Below are positions 1-15,673 of a DNA stretch of 15,673 bases, in pieces. The DNA is from a virus. The notes below the pieces were generated by a model. It saw nothing but the letters and a program-made list of their open reading frames with translations, was not told the DNA's origin and did not search any database. How positions within the stretch are numbered: the stretch's first letter is position 1; every line of letters begins with the position of its first letter. A program made the translations under genes and the position numbers. The stretch covers positions 1 through 15,673 of the IMG/VR virus record IMGVR_UViG_3300045988_059271. The stretch is one strand, 5' to 3'.

Positions 1-99
1 CCGAAAAGCGGGCAAAACCGCCGGAATGTCCGCGGGACGCGGACACATCCGAAACGGCAACTCACTTTAGTCTGCTAAAGTGTCCGCGGGTGACGGACA
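1..99. repeat. Left inverted terminal repeat (ITR-L), 99 bp perfect
   Basis: Bases 1-99 are the exact reverse complement of 15575-15673, compared base by base. It contains three palindromic hairpin motifs: 27-45 tgtccgc/gggac/gcggaca, 63-82 cactttag/tctg/ctaaagtg, and 81-99 tgtccg/cgggtga/cggaca. Confidence 0.95.
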
Positions 100-140
100 A
101 TGGGTGTAGGGTTTATGTGTGTAGGATTAGTGATATAAAT

Positions 141-1848: not shown

Positions 1849-1857
1849 GTGAATATA

Positions 1858-4017
1858 ATGTATAAATTAAATGTTCCCGTTATCATAAATGGAATTGAAT
1901 ATGTTTCACGTGAAAAAATTTATTCTGTTTATGATTTTCCTTTTTCCGATTTCCAGACGTTGCGCGAATGCCGCAAATGCGGAAGAAAGAAAAAACCTAT
2001 AGTTTATTATGACGTTGAAATGGCGTTTGATATTGAGACAACCACACTGGAAAAATTAGATTATAAACGCTATAATAAAACAGGGGAAAAAGTAATAAAA
2101 GGTGATGCTTTTATGTATCACTGGCAGTTCTGTTTAAAAGATACGGTCTGTTTCGGACGAACATGGAACGAGTTTATTCGTTTCTGTGAGGGTTTACATT
2201 TGTATTTGAAAACATCTGATACGAAACGCGCTGTAGTCTACGTTCACAATCTTTCATATGAATTTCAGTTCATGAAAGATTTCATTGAATTTGATGAAAT
2301 CTTTGCGCGGGATGCACATAAAGTTATGAAATGTTATGCGTATAAATACGGGATTGAATTTCGATGCTCGTATTTTTTAAGCAACATGAGTCTTTCAAAA
2401 TTTTGTGAAAACAGTGAGGGCGTAACCCACTATAAACTGGTTGATACGTATGACTATAAAAAACTACGTACACCAAAAACACCTTTAACGGACGTTGAAC
2501 AGGGATATTGTTACAACGATGTTCGAGGCTTGTGTGAGTGCATCCGCGCCTTACGGAAAGATGACAACCTTGCAGAAATCCCCCTTACATCAACTGGATA
2601 CGTCCGCCGTGAATTTCGCCGCGCCATGCAAGCAGATAGAGGCTATTATCCGGAAGTCTTTAACGATCTGGCATTAACCTTGCCGCAGTACCAACTCTGC
2701 AAAGATGCGTTCCGTGGCGGCAACACGCACGCCAGCCGCATCCACGCTGGGCACACGATCACGGCGAAAAAGGGTGAATCTGCGATCGTTATGGGTAGTA
2801 TGGATATTTCGAGCAGCTATCCGGCGCAGATCGCAACTGAGTATTATCCAATGAGTGCGTTCCGGGCGGTTGAGATCACAACGCAGGAACAGTTTGACAA
2901 CTTGTGTGCTACCCGCTGTGTTATTATGCGGGTACAATTTGATAATTTACACATCAAAGAAAACATTCCGGTACCATACATCCCGCTGTCGAAGTGCCAG
3001 AAGCACGGGAAAGATTGTGTGATTGATAATGGTCGAGTACTCTCTATTGACTGTTGCGAAATCGCAATGACAGAGATTGAGTTGGAGATCATAAAAAATC
3101 AATATGACTATGATTTCTTTACTGTCTCGGAGTGCTATGTAGCCGCGCGCGGCAAATTACCGGACAGTATGCGTAATACTATGATGGCGTTTTTTATCGC
3201 AAAGAGCCAGTTGAAAGGAAATCCCGATAAAGTCTATGAATACATGAAGTCTAAAAATAAGTTAAACAGTACGTTCGGTATGTGCGTGACCGATCTTTTG
3301 CAGGACGAATGGGCAATGGATGGTTTTACGGGTGAATGGCATCGGGAAAAAGCGGATGCGGAAAAAGCACTGAACACGTATTACGATGGAAAGAATAGTT
3401 TCCTACACTATCAATGGGGTATCTACGTTACCGCCCATGCAAGAAAGCAGTTACAAGATATGCTCGAAGTGGTTGGTATGGATGTAGTATACTGCGACAC
3501 GGACAGTATTAAGTTTTTGCATCCAGAAGTACACATTCCAGAATTTGAAGCGAAAAACAAATTACTTTCAAAACGTGCGATTGAAAACGACATTCCCGCG
3601 TTTTGCGATGTAGGTGAAAAACGCTACATTCTAGGCGTATGGGATATGGATGATCTGTATGTTCAGTTTAAAACCCTGGGGGCAAAGAAATATTGCGGAG
3701 TAGAATGGGACGAAAAAGCGGCACAATCCGGCAAAGACCCCGTGCGTTTTACGTCTACGGTCGCTGGCATGAACAAAAAATTAGGCGCGGAAAATATAAA
3801 GTGCTGTAATAATTTCCGTCTCTGCCGCAGAATGGAAAATGTCGGACGAACGATCAGTTGTTTTAACAACTCGAAACCGCATTATATCAACGTAAACGGG
3901 GAAGAAATTTTGACAGCTAGTAACATCGGAATTATTGATACTACTTATACATTAGGGGTATCGAATGAATACTATGAAGTGTTGGTAAACTCTCAAGACG
4001 GAGTGATACCGGAATAG
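1858..4017 (+). CDS. Family B DNA polymerase, protein-primed type (phi29 gp2-like)
   Basis: Exo I FDIETT (from nt 2029), Exo II HNLSYEFQF, Exo III YCYNDVRGL, motif A DISSSYPAQ, motif B KSKNKLNSTFGM, motif C YCDTDS (3490-3507), and GAKKY. The start is ambiguous between GTG 1849 (directly after the TP stop) and ATG 1858; neither has a good SD. Confidence 0.93.
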   Translation: MYKLNVPVIINGIEYVSREKIYSVYDFPFSDFQTLRECRKCGRKKKPIVYYDVEMAFDIETTTLEKLDYKRYNKTGEKVIKGDAFMYHWQFCLKDTVCFGRTWNEFIRFCEGLHLYLKTSDTKRAVVYVHNLSYEFQFMKDFIEFDEIFARDAHKVMKCYAYKYGIEFRCSYFLSNMSLSKFCENSEGVTHYKLVDTYDYKKLRTPKTPLTDVEQGYCYNDVRGLCECIRALRKDDNLAEIPLTSTGYVRREFRRAMQADRGYYPEVFNDLALTLPQYQLCKDAFRGGNTHASRIHAGHTITAKKGESAIVMGSMDISSSYPAQIATEYYPMSAFRAVEITTQEQFDNLCATRCVIMRVQFDNLHIKENIPVPYIPLSKCQKHGKDCVIDNGRVLSIDCCEIAMTEIELEIIKNQYDYDFFTVSECYVAARGKLPDSMRNTMMAFFIAKSQLKGNPDKVYEYMKSKNKLNSTFGMCVTDLLQDEWAMDGFTGEWHREKADAEKALNTYYDGKNSFLHYQWGIYVTAHARKQLQDMLEVVGMDVVYCDTDSIKFLHPEVHIPEFEAKNKLLSKRAIENDIPAFCDVGEKRYILGVWDMDDLYVQFKTLGAKKYCGVEWDEKAAQSGKDPVRFTSTVAGMNKKLGAENIKCCNNFRLCRRMENVGRTISCFNNSKPHYINVNGEEILTASNIGIIDTTYTLGVSNEYYEVLVNSQDGVIPE

Positions 4018-4026
4018 GAGAATAAA

Positions 4027-4149
4027 ATGAGATTTTTCATCTTTTTTATGTTACTTTTAATCGCAACGGTCTGTGCTTTGCATGAAGAGGAAATAGACCT
4101 TGCTATTCTGCTTTTATTTTTGGATATTTTTTTTATTTTTCTTGTATGA
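4027..4149 (+). CDS. Unannotated 40-aa hydrophobic mini-protein (MRFFIFFMLLLIATVCALHEEEIDLAILLLFLDIFFIFLV)
   Basis: Hand-translated and below the ORF-track size cutoff. AGGAG at 4016-4020 is 6 nt before ATG 4027. Two hydrophobic stretches are separated by HEEEID. The T-richness of the region could also generate such an ORF by chance. Confidence 0.4.
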   Translation: MRFFIFFMLLLIATVCALHEEEIDLAILLLFLDIFFIFLV

Positions 4150-4154
4150 AAGTA

Positions 4155-4183
4155 TTGACATTCTGCCAGAACAGTGCTATTAT
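4155..4183 (+). promoter_or_regulatory. Promoter P2 with a spacer palindrome
   Basis: AAAGTA-TTGACA (4155-4160), a 17-nt spacer, then TATTAT at 4178-4183. The spacer begins with the palindrome TTCTGcCAGAA (4161-4171), related to the TTCTAGAA boxes at P1. Confidence 0.65.
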
Positions 4184-4230
4184 AATACTTGTAAGAAATA
4201 ATAACCACATAAAGTAAAGGAGAAAAAAAC

Positions 4231-4464
4231 ATGGTACGCACAAAAATTGAAAAATGGCAGTACGCTGTCATTGACAGAAAAACAAGACAGGAACTCGGTT
4301 TTTTTGAGTCTGACTCAGAATTAAAATCGCAGAAAGCCAAAAAAGATGCTGTCATCTCGGCAGGACTGCCGGAAGATTCCGTTTGCGTCTTAGTCGACAC
4401 CGTATCTGCCCGCTACGAGATGACGGATGAGCAGTTTTTTGCAGAAGCAACAAGACTGGATTAA
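4231..4464 (+). CDS. Hypothetical protein (77 aa)
   Basis: AAGGAG at 4217-4222 is 8 nt before ATG 4231. No recognisable motifs. Confidence 0.6.
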   Translation: MVRTKIEKWQYAVIDRKTRQELGFFESDSELKSQKAKKDAVISAGLPEDSVCVLVDTVSARYEMTDEQFFAEATRLD

Positions 4465-4568: not shown

Positions 4569-4988
4569 ATGAGCAAAGCGAAAATGAGACTGAACAACGT
4601 AACTGTTAAATACGCAAAAGAGGAAGACGGAAAAAGTGTTCTTTCCGCGTCTATCTCTGCCGATCAGCAAAAAGACATTTTTGAAAAAATCATCAAAGAG
4701 TTTGGCGAAGATGCCGCCGCAGAAGCAAAATGGATTCCGGCAAAAGAAACCGATAAAAATGATCTTTACGTAAAAGCGCAGACCAACTATAAAGTAGATT
4801 TTTACGAGGACGGAATCGAGAGCGACACCGTTTCTAGTGTTGACGAACTCGGCAAAGGCGCAGTAGTCGACCTCTTCCTCTCGATCGGTGAAAGCAAATT
4901 CCGCCGCGACAAGGGATTCACGGCATACCTTTCCGCCGTAAACGTCCACAAGTTTGGCGATATGAAAAAATTCAATCCGTTTGCTTAA
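4569..4988 (+). CDS. Putative single-stranded DNA-binding protein (T7 gp2.5 / DUF2815-like architecture), 139 aa
   Basis: AAGGAG at 4554-4559 is 9 nt before the ATG. Overall layout resembles gp2.5-type phage SSBs as I remember them: an N-terminal beta-like MRLNNVTVKY segment, a central K/E-rich helix, and a C-terminal aromatic tail FNPFA. It sits in the replication-side module and is followed by a strong terminator. Weak, memory-based similarity only. Confidence 0.4.
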   Translation: MSKAKMRLNNVTVKYAKEEDGKSVLSASISADQQKDIFEKIIKEFGEDAAAEAKWIPAKETDKNDLYVKAQTNYKVDFYEDGIESDTVSSVDELGKGAVVDLFLSIGESKFRRDKGFTAYLSAVNVHKFGDMKKFNPFA

Positions 4989-5310: not shown

Positions 5311-6446
5311 TTTTTTGGAACGATATTCAATGGGAAAAACTTTTCGATGAATATAATTTGAAATTTGAAGCGGTAGACGATAACGGAAAACCAATTAAGT
5401 ATTACAACCCAATTCGGTTGTTTTCTGAGCCGGACGTTGACGGTGAATTCGCAGGTGTGGCAATTACGTGTTCCAACCGAAGTGCCGGAAAAACCAGTGC
5501 GTTTGCCGCGGCGAGTTGTATCTTGTGCAAAGAATATGGTTTGCAGACCGGATGGATTTTTCGGACAAAAGGGGAAATGACGGGAGCGGCGGCGATGTAT
5601 GAGGATATGTTGCAAATGTATCCAAAATTGGGTAGTGTGATTACCTATAAAAATCTGGATAAGAATGGAAATGTCGTGCGGTATTTTCTGGACGGTGAGC
5701 CATTCGGATGTGCGTTTAGCTTTGGAAGTAAGATGGACAGCGTGAAAAAATTATCGCCGTATTTTCGGGATATTTACTTTTTGTTTTTTGATGAGTTTTC
5801 CATGGAGAGTGGACAGTACGTAAAAGGAGAGAGCGAAAAACTCCAATCGTTGTTATTGACGATCAGCCGTGGAAACGGAAGTCAGTCAAGATGGTTTAAA
5901 CTGATTATGGCATCCAATAATATTTCGTTGCTCAATCCCTATTTTGTATTTTTTGGCATCCACAAACGGTATCAGAAAGAAACCAAAATGATGCATGGAA
6001 GTGGTTTTGTGTGCGAATTTACGCACAATGACAGTGCTAGTAAGGCGATGTGGGAAAATACTGCTCTGAAAGCATTCCGCGGCGGACACTATATGAAGAG
6101 CATGAGTGTAGGAGATCAGATGTTGATTGATGATGCCGTGTTTGTGCAAAAGCCGACCGGACGGTCGCGGTATCTGTTTACGATCGAGCACAGCGGAAAA
6201 AGTTATGGGGTGTATGAGTATTACGAAGAGGGTTACATCTATATTACGCACAACTATAACCCGTCTTGTAATTTTGTCGCGGTTTTTCGGGACGGAGATC
6301 ATACCCAAAACACGGTTATGTTGGAACACTATGATTATTTGTTTGAAAATCTAGTTGACGCATATCGCAAAGCATATTTGCGGTTTGACGATCTAGACAG
6401 CAAAAATATGGCGGTTGAGTTACTAGGGATTGATCTTTATAAATAG
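5307..6446 (+). CDS. DNA encapsidation (packaging) ATPase, phi29 gp16-like
   Basis: Walker A SNRSAGKTSA (GKT at 5487-5495) and Walker B FLFFDEF (DE at 5790-5795). IMASNNISLLNPYFVFFGI resembles phi29 gp16 ICLSNAVSVVNPYFLFFNL, and the C-terminal AYLRFDD resembles GYLRFDN. Confidence 0.9.
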   Translation: MIFWNDIQWEKLFDEYNLKFEAVDDNGKPIKYYNPIRLFSEPDVDGEFAGVAITCSNRSAGKTSAFAAASCILCKEYGLQTGWIFRTKGEMTGAAAMYEDMLQMYPKLGSVITYKNLDKNGNVVRYFLDGEPFGCAFSFGSKMDSVKKLSPYFRDIYFLFFDEFSMESGQYVKGESEKLQSLLLTISRGNGSQSRWFKLIMASNNISLLNPYFVFFGIHKRYQKETKMMHGSGFVCEFTHNDSASKAMWENTALKAFRGGHYMKSMSVGDQMLIDDAVFVQKPTGRSRYLFTIEHSGKSYGVYEYYEEGYIYITHNYNPSCNFVAVFRDGDHTQNTVMLEHYDYLFENLVDAYRKAYLRFDDLDSKNMAVELLGIDLYK

Positions 6447-6470
6447 TTCGTGGGAGACGGACAAAAGTAC

Positions 6471-6579: not shown

Positions 6580-6611
6580 TTGTTTTAATGGACAGGAAGA
6601 AAGGAGCAAAG

Positions 6612-6902
6612 ATGGCAAGTATCGTTTTTAATATGATTGTCGGAATGATGAAAAAAGAAAATGCTTATCTTGCTTATACGGTACGCTATAAAGCGGACGA
6701 AAAAGACACGCTGATCATTGTCCCTCATGAAAATTACGAGTCTCACATCCGGTATTTGTGGGATTTCTTTTTCATGGATGGCAACGCGTATAACAGTAAA
6801 TCGCCAGTTCGATTCATTCATAATTTTATTATGTGTGATAAATTAAGTGAAATTGAGGACTGGTTAAAATGGCAGGATAAGGAGGTAGAAACATGGATGT
6901 AA
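6612..6902 (+). CDS. Hypothetical protein (96 aa), first gene of the P3 operon
   Basis: ORF track gives 6588..6902. AAGGAG at 6601-6606 precedes the in-frame ATG 6612 by 5 nt, so 6612 is preferred. No family recognised. Confidence 0.55.
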   Translation: MASIVFNMIVGMMKKENAYLAYTVRYKADEKDTLIIVPHENYESHIRYLWDFFFMDGNAYNSKSPVRFIHNFIMCDKLSEIEDWLKWQDKEVETWM

Positions 6903-13765: not shown

Positions 13766-15526
13766 ATGGCAGAGAAACCAACGATTCCAGATTTTCCTAC
13801 GTTGCCAGATTTCGGTAAGATGATTACGCAGGCTTGTGAAGTTGTAGCAAGTGTGCGGGGGATTCCGTATGATTTCAACGGTACATTGAGTCTGGAAAAT
13901 AAATTTGTTGTGCTGTTTAAGACGGTGAAAGAAATGTTTGACGCACAGGACGAACTTGTAAAAAGTTACAAGGCGTTATATGATTTTGTCAATCAGTATT
14001 TTACTGATTTAAATGTACAGGACGAAATAAACAAAAAAATACAGTCAATGGTAGAAGACGGAAGTCTAGTTACTTTACTCGCACCGACTGTATCAAATAG
14101 TACAGGAGAATGGTTAGAAACCAATATTACTAATCCATCCAATCCGCCTATTGATAAAAGTTTAACAGTTGAAAACGCCGCCGCTGATGCAAAAATAGTT
14201 GGAGATAAAATAACAGCTAATACAGAACAAATTACTAAAAACTCAACTGAGTTGTACTACACAAAAGAAAACGAAATTACGGTAAATGTACCCGAATATA
14301 GTCTATTAGAAAATAAAGTTGCTTATATTGACACAAATAACAAAATTGCAACGTATGATAATACCGCCGCATTTGTACTTAAAAAAAATGTTTCAAACGG
14401 CGAAAAATATAGAATTAAATCACAAACACACGGAACAGTAAACACGTTATTATATGCTATTTGCAATACAAACGGTATTGTTCTAAAATCAGAAAAAATG
14501 GGTGTTCCTGCAAATACTTACATTACAACTAACATTACAATCCCAGAAAACGGTACTATATTATATCTGAACGAATTTCCAACACAGAAATTTCCTTTAG
14601 TTGTGTATAAAATAGAAACTATTGATGTTTCTAGCATCAACGGGAATAACACAATAAATTGCTGGGGCGATTCACTAACGCGTGGTGTAGGTGTAGGCGA
14701 TTCCTATTCTAAAGCTTATCCATATGTTTTATTTAACTTACTTGATGGTCGAAAAGTAATCAACTGTGGAATAGGAGGAGAAAATATAATTGCCATTGCA
14801 TCACGGCAGGGAGGTTTGCCGAATATGGTACAGCCTTTTACTATTCCATCAGATTCCACAAAAGTAAAAATTAATTTGTCTAATATATACGGCAATAGTG
14901 CAGAAATTTTATTACAAAGTGGTTCAGCTTTAGACCCTATAACAGATAAGTATATTAAAACGGCGCAAATTAACCCGTGTGCCATTAACGGAATTACAGG
15001 TACTATTACTTACGAAAATGGTAACTATTATTTTTCACGTTCCGAAAAAGGAAACTCTGTAATAGTAACGCGCCCTGTTCCATTGATTACACATGGCATG
15101 ACAAAGCTACGCGATAATATCAATGTAATATGGATTGGCACGAACGGCGGTTTCACAACCTCCGCAGAATTGATAGAAACTATAGATACTATGATTAAGT
15201 ATATGCGCCCGATTACAAAAAAATATATAGTAATCGGTTTACATCACTTAACCAGTTCGGTAACAGAATCATTCGCAATTATCGAAAAAAATATGACAAC
15301 ACACTTTGGTCAGAATTACATTAATGAACGCCAATATATGGTTAAATATGGCCTGCTTGATGCTGGTATTACACCCACTCCAGAAGACAATGCCGCTATT
15401 TCACAGGGAAAAATACCTCCGTCATTATTATATGACGATGTCCACTACAATGCAAAAGGATATGCTATAATTGCTAATCTCGTAGCAGAACGCGGAAAAG
15501 AAATTGGTTACTGGCAGTTAAAGTAA
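13766..15526 (+). CDS. Tail fibre / appendage (receptor-binding protein) with a C-terminal SGNH/GDSL esterase domain
   Basis: It is the last structural gene, behind a strong SD. The N-terminal virion-anchor-like part includes LNVQDEINKKIQSMVEDGSL and an AADAKIVGDKI motif common in Gram-positive phage fibres. All four SGNH blocks are present in order: CWGDSLTRG (GDS at 14666-14674), NCGIGGE, WIGTNGG, and DDVHYN (15434-15445). Confidence 0.8.
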   Translation: MAEKPTIPDFPTLPDFGKMITQACEVVASVRGIPYDFNGTLSLENKFVVLFKTVKEMFDAQDELVKSYKALYDFVNQYFTDLNVQDEINKKIQSMVEDGSLVTLLAPTVSNSTGEWLETNITNPSNPPIDKSLTVENAAADAKIVGDKITANTEQITKNSTELYYTKENEITVNVPEYSLLENKVAYIDTNNKIATYDNTAAFVLKKNVSNGEKYRIKSQTHGTVNTLLYAICNTNGIVLKSEKMGVPANTYITTNITIPENGTILYLNEFPTQKFPLVVYKIETIDVSSINGNNTINCWGDSLTRGVGVGDSYSKAYPYVLFNLLDGRKVINCGIGGENIIAIASRQGGLPNMVQPFTIPSDSTKVKINLSNIYGNSAEILLQSGSALDPITDKYIKTAQINPCAINGITGTITYENGNYYFSRSEKGNSVIVTRPVPLITHGMTKLRDNINVIWIGTNGGFTTSAELIETIDTMIKYMRPITKKYIVIGLHHLTSSVTESFAIIEKNMTTHFGQNYINERQYMVKYGLLDAGITPTPEDNAAISQGKIPPSLLYDDVHYNAKGYAIIANLVAERGKEIGYWQLK

Positions 15527-15550
15527 ACAATTACAACTTATGCCACCCAA

Positions 15551-15598
15551 TGTCCGTCACCCGCGGACACGCCGTGTCCGTCACCCGCGGACACTTTA
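15551..15598. repeat. Right-end-specific tandem duplication of the innermost ITR hairpin (24-bp period)
   Basis: tgtccgtcacccgcggacac occurs at 15551-15570 and again at 15575-15594. The left end has a single copy (81-99). Confidence 0.85.
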
Positions 15599-15673
15599 GC
15601 AGACTAAAGTGAGTTGCCGTTTCGGATGTGTCCGCGTCCCGCGGACATTCCGGCGGTTTTGCCCGCTTTTCGG
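15575..15673. repeat. Right inverted terminal repeat (ITR-R), 99 bp perfect
   Basis: Exact reverse complement of 1-99. Weaker homology continues inward after the 24-bp duplication (15543-15550 versus 100-107, 6 of 8 positions). Confidence 0.95.

Follow-up and report, generated by a model that had tools for sequence, protein, structure and literature searches.

A conserved palindrome confined to the long terminal repeats of an abundant uncultured phi29-like phage lineage, and a contig with a probably truncated repeat

The stretch of DNA analyzed here, hereafter the window, spans all 15,673 nucleotides of the IMG/VR virus record IMGVR_UViG_3300045988_059271, and its two ends form an inverted terminal repeat (ITR). 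Our analysis indicates that the window very probably represents a linear, protein-primed, phi29-like phage genome. Its ITR is a genuine biological repeat, neither a chance similarity nor a fold-back chimera, and the GC-rich palindromes within it are copies of one 19-bp palindrome, (T/A)GTCCG-N7-CGGACA, which is exclusive to the ITRs of this lineage. The initial annotation had taken the window for a complete genome bounded by a 99-bp ITR. Comparison with relatives shows instead that what remains at its ends is the inner portion of a longer repeat. The explanation that we favor, and consider likely when taken as a whole, is that the source is an uncultured and very abundant phi29-like podophage replicating via protein priming, that its real ITR measures about 414 bp, and that the contig is near-complete, having lost about 315 bp from each end.

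The terminal repeat as seen in the window

Positions 1–99 (the left arm, + strand) are the exact reverse complement of positions 15575–15673 (the right arm, − strand), and the two arms first diverge at position 100 (A in the left arm, C in the right). The G+C content of the ITR is 59.6% against 41.0% for the rest of the window. The three palindromes of the left arm lie where the initial annotation had placed them. Site 1 (27–45) is a copy of the 19-bp motif with 8-bp arms, TGTCCGCG-GGA-CGCGGACA. Site 2 (81–99), located 54 bp from site 1, is a further copy with 6-bp arms that reads TGTCCG-CGGGTGA-CGGACA. Between these two motif copies is an AT-rich palindrome (63–82), again with 8-bp arms, of the form CACTTTAG-tctg-CTAAAGTG. 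The right-arm copies of site 1, the AT-rich palindrome and site 2 occupy 15629–15647, 15592–15611 and 15575–15593, respectively. The 10-bp direct repeat TGTCCGCGGG is also present as described, at 27–36 and 81–90.

The inner edge of perfect arm identity is marked by an extra 24-bp tandem motif unit that is present only in the right arm (15551–15574), a spacing that also recurs in relatives. Past this unit, similarity between the arms resumes for about 8 nt, with an imperfect continuation of the repeat at 100–107 (+ strand; ATGGGTGT versus TTGGGTGG at 15543–15550), such that 80–106 and 15544–15570 are 96% identical. When folded as single-stranded DNA (ssDNA), positions 1–110 reach −26.3 kcal/mol (z = −4.2), and none of 200 shuffled sequences folded as well.

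Gene content and the protein-primed polymerase

All 18 substantial open reading frames (ORFs) of the window lie on the + strand, between 236 and 15526. They include a DNA polymerase, a Gp16-type packaging ATPase (PF05894, E = 5e-28), a holin, lysins, a scaffold-sized ORF, a phi29-type major head protein (MCP), tail, upper collar and lower collar proteins, and a tail fibre with an SGNH/GDSL domain. The virion genes match phrog_2006, 2038, 3225 and 2248, and the Phi29_MCP and phi29_gp9_C domains were found on homologues in contig L097. Thus, the phi29-type packaging and virion set of Gp16 ATPase, connector, collar and MCP is represented.

The polymerase gene (1849–4017, + strand; phrog_1907, E = 1.6e-50) codes for a family B DNA polymerase (PolB) of the protein-primed phi29 type, in agreement with the initial annotation. 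Neither Pfam nor NCBIfam returned a match to this protein, and the phi29 DNA polymerase (DNAP) was reached only by a custom profile: built from nine homologues and run against PDB, it had phi29 DNAP (1XHX, 2EX3) as its sole match (E = 4.6e-25, residues 55–551). The motifs DxxSxYP, KxxxNSxYG and YCDTDS are present, and the Exo III, A, B and YCDTDS motifs align with those of the Cp-1 and asccphi28 enzymes.

Directly upstream of PolB is an ORF for a protein of 192 aa (1270–1848, + strand; an upstream GTG at 1261 is possible), which we treat as a candidate terminal protein (TP) because of its position and conservation. In phi29, Cp-1 and asccphi28 the TP gene likewise lies directly upstream of the polymerase. 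The candidate is homologous to the same-position ORF in AD70P2 (E = 2e-5), and it shares a motif, present twice, with the same-position ORF in Clostridium phage HM2 (LT600745), the nearest cultured relative. The family has 110 representatives at 50% clustering, among which N32, F87 and S145 are invariant, with S145 as the foremost candidate for a priming residue, and an AlphaFold (AF2) model of the candidate is all-alpha and confident (pLDDT 91). TPs are known to be poorly conserved (PMC5175343). Within the family, HM2 (L086 1150–2088) and about 20 other representatives of 280–310 aa display a tandem duplication of the 190-aa domain. Two larger proteins, P0138 (2694 aa) and P0217 (979 aa), contain 14 and 5 stretches, respectively, that match the C-terminal part of the TP candidate (query residues 119–176).

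The lineage is very common in public metagenomes, where the TP candidate forms 533 clusters at 90% identity (Logan, ENA, JGI); some of these clusters hold hundreds of member sequences, and none carries a functional name. A megablast search with the whole window found no DNA-level match among deposited phages. Exact-protein look-ups with the first ORF (including two alternative starts), the tail fibre and the MCP returned no record of the window's own phage. A scan of a genome collection with the family terminus, for a host or a plasmid-prophage form, likewise returned no match, and no host was assigned.

The window retains the inner part of a longer repeat

A scan of IMG/VR for the motif recovered 85 loci, mostly on contigs of 15–17 kb that are 85–90% identical to the window over 8–14 kb. 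In many of these relatives about 340 bp separate the motif from the contig end, versus 27 bp in the window. Among the rebuilt contigs, the 12 with both ends carry perfect ITRs of 273 to 816 bp, so the length of 99 bp initially given for the repeat does not hold. The first 57–60 nt of the window are 82–95% identical to an internal segment of the relatives' ITRs that starts at 311–328, and a MAFFT alignment of 34 distinct arms with both window arms equally places window position 1 inside the repeat, at about 316; the left arm as a whole aligns to ~316–414 of the full ITRs. One contig, 077393 (L066), has the window's left junction at 97.6% identity together with the full outer 315 bp. An independent ENA MEGAHIT contig of 16,539 bp (L097) codes for a TP candidate 96% identical to that of the window, has this gene 310 bp further from the contig end, and contains the same outer block. 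The edges of the window are thus not the physical ends of the DNA.

A simple assembly effect would account for this loss. We flanked the window with the outer 315 bp of L066 on the left and with their reverse complement on the right, obtaining a model genome with a 414-bp ITR, and traced its unbranched paths in a de Bruijn graph with k = 99. The path obtained ran from 317 to 15987. Once the two junction vertices are counted in, as SPAdes and MEGAHIT do when spelling an edge, it runs from 316 to 15988 and equals the window exactly, with 15,673 nt and a 99-nt terminal repeat. The value 99 is standard in the k lists of both assemblers. Identical ITR arms would collapse into one graph path that branches where the arms diverge, and a contig of the unique part would retain only k = 99 repeat bases on each side. 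The result would be a tidy "perfect 99-bp ITR" whose outer edges are break points of the graph. We infer that repeat collapse at k = 99 underlies both the symmetric stop and the 99-nt length. The intact genome would then measure about 16.3 kb.

The competing reading, adopted initially, is that the contig is the whole genome and that its 99-bp ITR, with 5'-CCGAAAAG ends, is the true TP-capped terminus. It would explain why both contig ends stop at the same repeat base, its 5'-CC would provide a minimal 2-nt reiteration, and all expected phi29-type genes do lie between the repeats. However, repeat collapse in a de Bruijn graph yields exactly such a symmetric stop, the first 57 nt of the window match the internal positions ~316–372 of every close relative's ITR, the relatives share another terminus that begins with 5'-AAA, and conservation of the ITR, as far out as HM2, is highest in the outer block that is absent from the window. 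We hence regard completeness with a 99-bp ITR as very improbable. A terminal repeat created by the assembly itself, such as a chimeric fold-back contig, had been named at the outset as a possible undoing of the ITR, and the coincidence of the repeat length with a standard k value might be cited for it. It is scarcely credible given that the same architecture occurs at both ends of dozens of independent contigs, at least 12 of them independently assembled with both ends and with natural variation between genomes, that the window arms differ by a 24-bp tandem unit at their inner edge, and that the repeat lies outside genes at both ends.

The common terminus and the anatomy of the full repeat

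Aligning the relatives' ends by their first motif copy revealed a shared final base, located 13 nt beyond the motif and reached by 18 ends that belong to 14 contigs of three IMG datasets. The common terminus is 5'-AAA(C/G/T)ATATATA(C/T)A|GTCCG, with the ends converging on 5'-AAACATATATA. Three contigs overrun it with mutually unrelated sequence. Shorter contigs end 1–10 nt short of it, as is expected if the ends are protein-blocked, a difficulty that has been noted (PMC5175343). Contig 099216 (L021) opens at 1–40 with the Nextera transposase adapter TCGTCGGCAGCGTCAGATGTGTATAA, an untrimmed adapter assembled onto a phage end.

A 5'-AAA end implies a template 3'-TTT end, and phi29 uses internal initiation followed by sliding-back on a terminal 3'-TTT (PMC5175343). 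The window itself begins with 5'-CCGAAAAGCG, its 5'-CC edges not being physical ends. The relatives' 5'-AAA(C/G/T)ATATATA fits a terminal reiteration, and the same is probable for the window's phage: its physical ends would lie about 315 bp beyond the contig edges, begin 5'-AAA(C)ATATATA and carry a covalently attached TP, and the template 3'-TTT, as in phi29, Nf, GA-1 and Cp-1, would permit internal initiation and sliding-back. Further, the terminal ~65 nt can still be aligned with the end of HM2; hence, the outermost block, which is absent from the window, is the evolutionarily conserved part of the repeat.

We read the anatomy of the full ITR inward from the terminus in the coordinates of L060. 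The terminus itself, AAACATATATATA, occupies 1–13 and is followed by two motif copies, roughly reverse complements of each other, at 14–30 and 45–61. Next comes a strong bidirectional terminator-like hairpin, AAAAGCGGTGTC-(11 nt)-GACACCGCTTTT, at 77–111, then an AT-rich stretch (~113–190) and an inward-facing sigma-70-like promoter, TTGACA-17-TAAAGT (193–221). The block retained in the window starts at 316 and comprises a motif copy, the CACTTTAG palindrome, a motif copy and 0–2 extra 24-bp units. Inward of it, many relatives, as opposed to the window, have a variable GC-rich segment of CCGTCCG repeats.

The ITR promoter shows peculiarities of its own. In L012, L036, L070 and L078, its −35 and −10 elements are 27 rather than 17 nt apart owing to a 10-nt poly-A expansion (TTGACAAAAAAAAAAAAAAACGC) in the spacer. 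This would mean either a dispensable promoter or a slippage-prone on/off tract. With one inward promoter in each arm, the right-hand copy would give an RNA antisense to the tail-fibre gene. A 76-aa ORF in the relatives' ITR (L060 163–393) was dismissed as non-coding, as it overlaps the promoter and its frame is broken by the 10-nt poly-A insertion in several relatives.

We also considered genomes of other kinds. A hairpin-telomere (protelomerase) or hairpin-primed genome is not compatible with the terminal 13 nt, AAACATATATA(C/T)A, which lie outside any palindrome, or with a set of 18 ORFs that contains a protein-primed PolB instead of a resolvase or nickase gene. Gene content, together with the way the terminus is built, led us to reject the hairpin-telomere, rolling-hairpin and transposon (Polinton- or casposon-like) readings alike.

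A single palindromic motif restricted to the repeats

The window contains five copies of the motif core GTCCG-N7-CGGAC, two in the left arm and three in the right, with none outside the arms, against an expectation of 0.01 (200 shuffles). In complete relatives each arm holds 4–6 copies, and the intervening ~15 kb is almost free of them. Across 84 distinct ends we counted 229 instances, at fixed spacings of 31, 298, 54 and 24 bp (the 54-bp spacing 59 times), and in the relatives 13 nt separate the first copy from the true end. The window also has a single interior near-match with one mismatch, GTTCGTGGGAGACGGAC, at 6440–6464 (TAAATAGTTCGTGGGAGACGGACAA, 80% identical to 76–100); located where the packaging ATPase gene ends, it could be due to chance.

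Conservation was assessed on an alignment of 45 distinct arms with a mean column identity of 89%. The arms of site 1 are identical in all 45, while its 3-nt centre takes five forms. For both motif copies together, 23 of 28 arm columns are invariant compared to 88 of 167 columns elsewhere (p = 0.004), and only one of the 10 centre columns is so. Paired states account for 98.4% of the cells across the 45 arms; none of the 20 pairs shows a compensatory change, and RNAalifold reports 0 compensatory pairs with a covariation term of −0.75. The AT-rich palindrome (63–82) is conserved in relatives as well, with the changes seen in it breaking pairs and not compensating for them. Invariant arms without covariation point to conservation of the sequence, and not merely of pairing. 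The motif therefore appears to fit a sequence-specific, probably dimeric, protein site better than a structure-only hairpin or an RNA. Further, two of the copies lie within 13–61 nt of the physical end, on the outer side of the terminator and upstream of all promoters, which points to a role in replication or end organization rather than in transcription.

Two kinds of inverted variants were observed among the relatives. The 11-nt loop of the terminator hairpin is CGCCAGGGAAA in most of them, and in 038131 (L080/L032) and L097 (~55–75) it is replaced by the exact reverse complement, TTTCCCTGGCG, with the stems unchanged. Similarly, the centre of site 1 is CGGGACG or CGGGTCG in most and CGTCCCG in 052362 and 112335 (L022, L041). 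Such flip-flop variants suggest hairpin-mediated template switching in vivo and that the hairpins form at some frequency. The protein-site and hairpin roles are not exclusive.

Possible roles of the palindromes

The initial annotation had proposed that the palindromes are recognition sites for origin-binding proteins. This is still the best reading, and one better grounded now by the invariant arms, the restriction to the ITR and the copy 13 nt from the terminus. In this scheme, a dimeric protein would bind the motif and mark or organize the genome ends for initiation by TP and polymerase, the motif acting as an auxiliary origin element analogous to the adenovirus NFI sites and the phi29 p6 nucleoprotein complex. 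The same palindromes would inevitably fold as hairpins on the displaced strand, and the motif-bearing sequence TGTCCGCGGGACGCGGACA is conceivable as a duplex or as a hairpin. We tentatively put forward, as a possibility, a more specific version in which the dimeric protein is encoded by the phage, perhaps by one of three unannotated small ORFs upstream of the TP candidate, in what we take to be the genomic position of genes 6, 5 and 4 in phi29. By binding the 4–6 phased sites of each ITR, one of them 13 nt from the end, it would recruit or position the TP-polymerase complex and thus constitute a dedicated, sequence-specific auxiliary origin system.

These proposals have to be weighed against other uses of the same palindromes. 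They might act mainly as ssDNA hairpins, with a snap-back on the displaced strand aiding panhandle formation, single-strand-binding protein (SSB) loading or end repair. This would suit the fold, which is far stronger than that of shuffled sequences, the near-universal pairing across the 45 arms, and the reverse-complemented terminator loops and site 1 centres of some relatives, which carry a signature of template switching. Yet the same hexamers recur in every copy and every genome, which a role in structure alone would not require. The 20 pairs show no compensatory change in 45 sequences, and copies whose 6-bp stem encloses a 7-nt loop form weak hairpins but retain the same half-sites. All of this makes a mainly structural role doubtful. 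Alternatively, the motif copies could be operators for a regulator of the ITR and early promoters, unrelated to replication. Palindromic sites at fixed spacing between the ITR promoter and the early promoter are what this would look like, and phi29-type regulators such as p4 bind inverted repeats near promoters. We consider it unlikely, however, as the two copies 13–61 nt from the physical end lie beyond the terminator, where they are upstream of all promoters and face away from them. Moreover, the early promoter already bears a separate palindrome, TTTCTAGAAA, in three copies, and the similar second promoter (4149–4187) lacks the motif.

A structured RNA, either an analogue of the packaging RNA (pRNA) or a leader, transcribed inward from the ITR promoter through the hairpin block is quite unlikely. 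The relatives do have a sigma-70-like promoter that matches at 10 of 12 positions and faces inward ~95 nt upstream of the block, a Gp16-type ATPase of the kind that works with pRNA in phi29 is present, and phi29 encodes its 174-nt pRNA near one end, at 147–320 (PMC11476376). Nevertheless, Rfam at gathering scores gave no match in the window or in the end loci of four relatives, and at E ≤ 1 in one full ITR it gave nothing credible, save a chance-level match to a small RNA (sRNA). Neither a covariance match to pRNA nor a covarying structure was found near the end, consistent with the RNAalifold result above. In addition, the 10-nt poly-A insertion of several relatives would wreck the promoter, and the right-arm transcript would be antisense to the tail-fibre gene.

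Returning to the reading of a truncated, protein-primed genome with protein-binding sites in its ITR, several observations weigh against it. As regards the truncation, one other truncated relative keeps an 85-bp remnant, which is not a standard k. No assembly of the exact phage was found in the searchable collections, so the outer 315 bp and the terminus are extrapolated from relatives. The right junction had no match in two metagenome scans and one viral scan and has no counterpart among the fetched relatives (~45 contigs 85–90% identical). The identity of the arms in assemblies may also partly reflect repeat collapse. With respect to the TP, BLASTP found no link between the candidate and the TPs of Cp-1 and asccphi28, and neither a profile against PDB, nor Pfam on 61 members, nor the AF2 model against PDB and BFVD led to a known TP (phi29, Cp-1, asccphi28) or a named protein. 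Finally, none of the small early ORFs, which lie at 251–535, 674–1027, 1040–1270, 4231–4464, 4569–4988 and 6588–6902, matches a DNA-binding family that could supply the motif-binding protein, and invariant palindrome arms are also compatible with a hairpin constrained for another reason.

Early promoters and the tail-fibre end

Just inside the ITR, and not part of it, the window has an early promoter (141–196, + strand) in which TTGACA (168–173) is separated by a 17-nt spacer from TATTGT. The three TTTCTAGAAA palindromes around it lie at 141–150, 153–162 and 176–185. A second promoter, directly after PolB (4149–4187), is 79% identical to it over 39 nt and reads TCTGCCAGAA in place of the palindrome. 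The pair looks like an operator-controlled early promoter plus a middle or late promoter.

At the opposite end, none of the ~45 contigs that are otherwise 85–90% identical has a counterpart of positions 15400–15580, a region comprising the right junction and the 3' end of the tail-fibre gene. The C-terminal domain of the tail fibre is 92% identical in only one IMG/VR contig, 104413 (L099), which is truncated 54 nt after the gene. The 3' end of this gene is probably a swapped receptor-binding or SGNH-esterase module.

Comparison with known protein-primed systems

The layout of the full ITR is best paralleled by that of Lactococcus phage asccphi28 (NC_010363), a phi29-like podophage of 18.8 kb. 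According to its GenBank annotation, it has a long ITR (577 bp) as in the window's lineage, with a terminator hairpin near the terminus (23–75) and promoters inside. It also has a near-terminal 23-nt inverted repeat, and its TP gene lies directly upstream of that for the 722-aa polymerase, as do the candidate TP and PolB here. In contrast, the ITR sequences of the two show no similarity: the near-terminal repeats of asccphi28 are of the AT-rich form TTTCA/TGAAA rather than 4–6 copies of a GC-rich 19-bp palindrome. Its structural genes are on the opposite strand whereas the window uses one strand for all, and its PolB is only marginally similar to that of the window (E = 6e-5). Streptococcus phage Cp-1 (NC_001825), for which protein priming is experimentally established, resembles the lineage in its 5'-AAA start, promoters inside the ITR, TP gene followed by that for the polymerase, and mostly rightward transcription. 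Its ITR is shorter, at 236 bp, and AT-rich, with no inverted repeat detected in the first 140 nt, and its PolB is weakly similar to that of the window (E = 9e-4).

With phi29 the window shares the polymerase type and the morphogenetic module. The phi29 p6 protein binds every 24 bp, which parallels the idea of a DNA-binding protein organizing the ends. Gene orientation differs, as the early and late genes of phi29 diverge whereas every substantial ORF of the window is on the + strand. The ITR of phi29 is AAAGTA and, unlike those of the lineage, has no sequence-specific repeated palindrome; conversely, pRNA was not detected in the window's lineage by Rfam. The relatives' 5'-AAA terminus fits the phi29 mechanism of sliding-back on 3'-TTT (PMC5175343), and the DNA-binding proteins of phi29 have been reviewed (PMC4974454). 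The ITR benchmarks used initially are correct for phi29 (6 bp; PMC11476376) and for Cp-1 (236 bp), and the ITRs of Clostridium perfringens podophages are 25–30 bp long (PMC3362512).

HM2 has a PolB 45–46% identical to that of the window, the same gene order, and a homologue of the TP candidate upstream of PolB, which is, unlike that of the window, the two-copy form of 312 aa. Its ITR, at ~155–184 bp, is shorter than those of the lineage. Its first ~65 nt can be aligned with the lineage terminus. HM2 has an imperfect palindrome (11–35) at the same distance from the end as the lineage motif, but of different sequence, with no GTCCG-N7-CGGAC, in a genome of 29% G+C (PMC11476376). AD70P2 in turn has a repeated hexamer of its own, GTGCTA/TAGCAC. 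The motifs of HM2 and AD70P2 thus look as lineage-specific pairs of a protein and its site would.

A more distant analogy is offered by adenovirus, whose linear genome is also protein-primed and has an ITR of ~100 bp or more, in which a dimeric factor stimulates initiation from a palindromic site that comes after the terminal core origin (NFI, Oct-1). Adenovirus differs in being a eukaryotic virus that uses host-protein factors and has one site rather than 4–6 copies, so that the likeness is one of analogy only, not homology. Terminal reiteration is used in adenovirus for jumping-back (PMC5175343).

Conclusions

Long ITRs with internal hairpins or terminators and promoters were already known from this group of phages, namely the 577 bp of asccphi28 and the 236 bp of Cp-1. 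What is new is that an abundant uncultured lineage has a 19-bp palindrome, strictly conserved and restricted to its ITRs, with a probable function in the organization of the ends. The window also illustrates that a "perfect ITR" as long as a common assembler k (55, 77, 99, 127 or 141) is no proof of a complete linear genome, and such contigs will be mislabeled by completeness callers for which any terminal inverted repeat suffices. In this instance the part lost would be the most informative 315 bp, which hold the true origin.

The lineage provides a natural series of long ITRs, from 273 to 816 bp, with a strictly conserved palindrome confined to the repeats. It is thus convenient for asking how long-ITR protein-primed phages recognize and maintain their ends, a matter studied almost only in phi29 with its 6 bp. 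If true, the auxiliary origin system that we tentatively propose would give phi29-like phages their first described origin-binding module with sequence specificity, a bacterial counterpart of the adenovirus NFI/Oct-1 arrangement.

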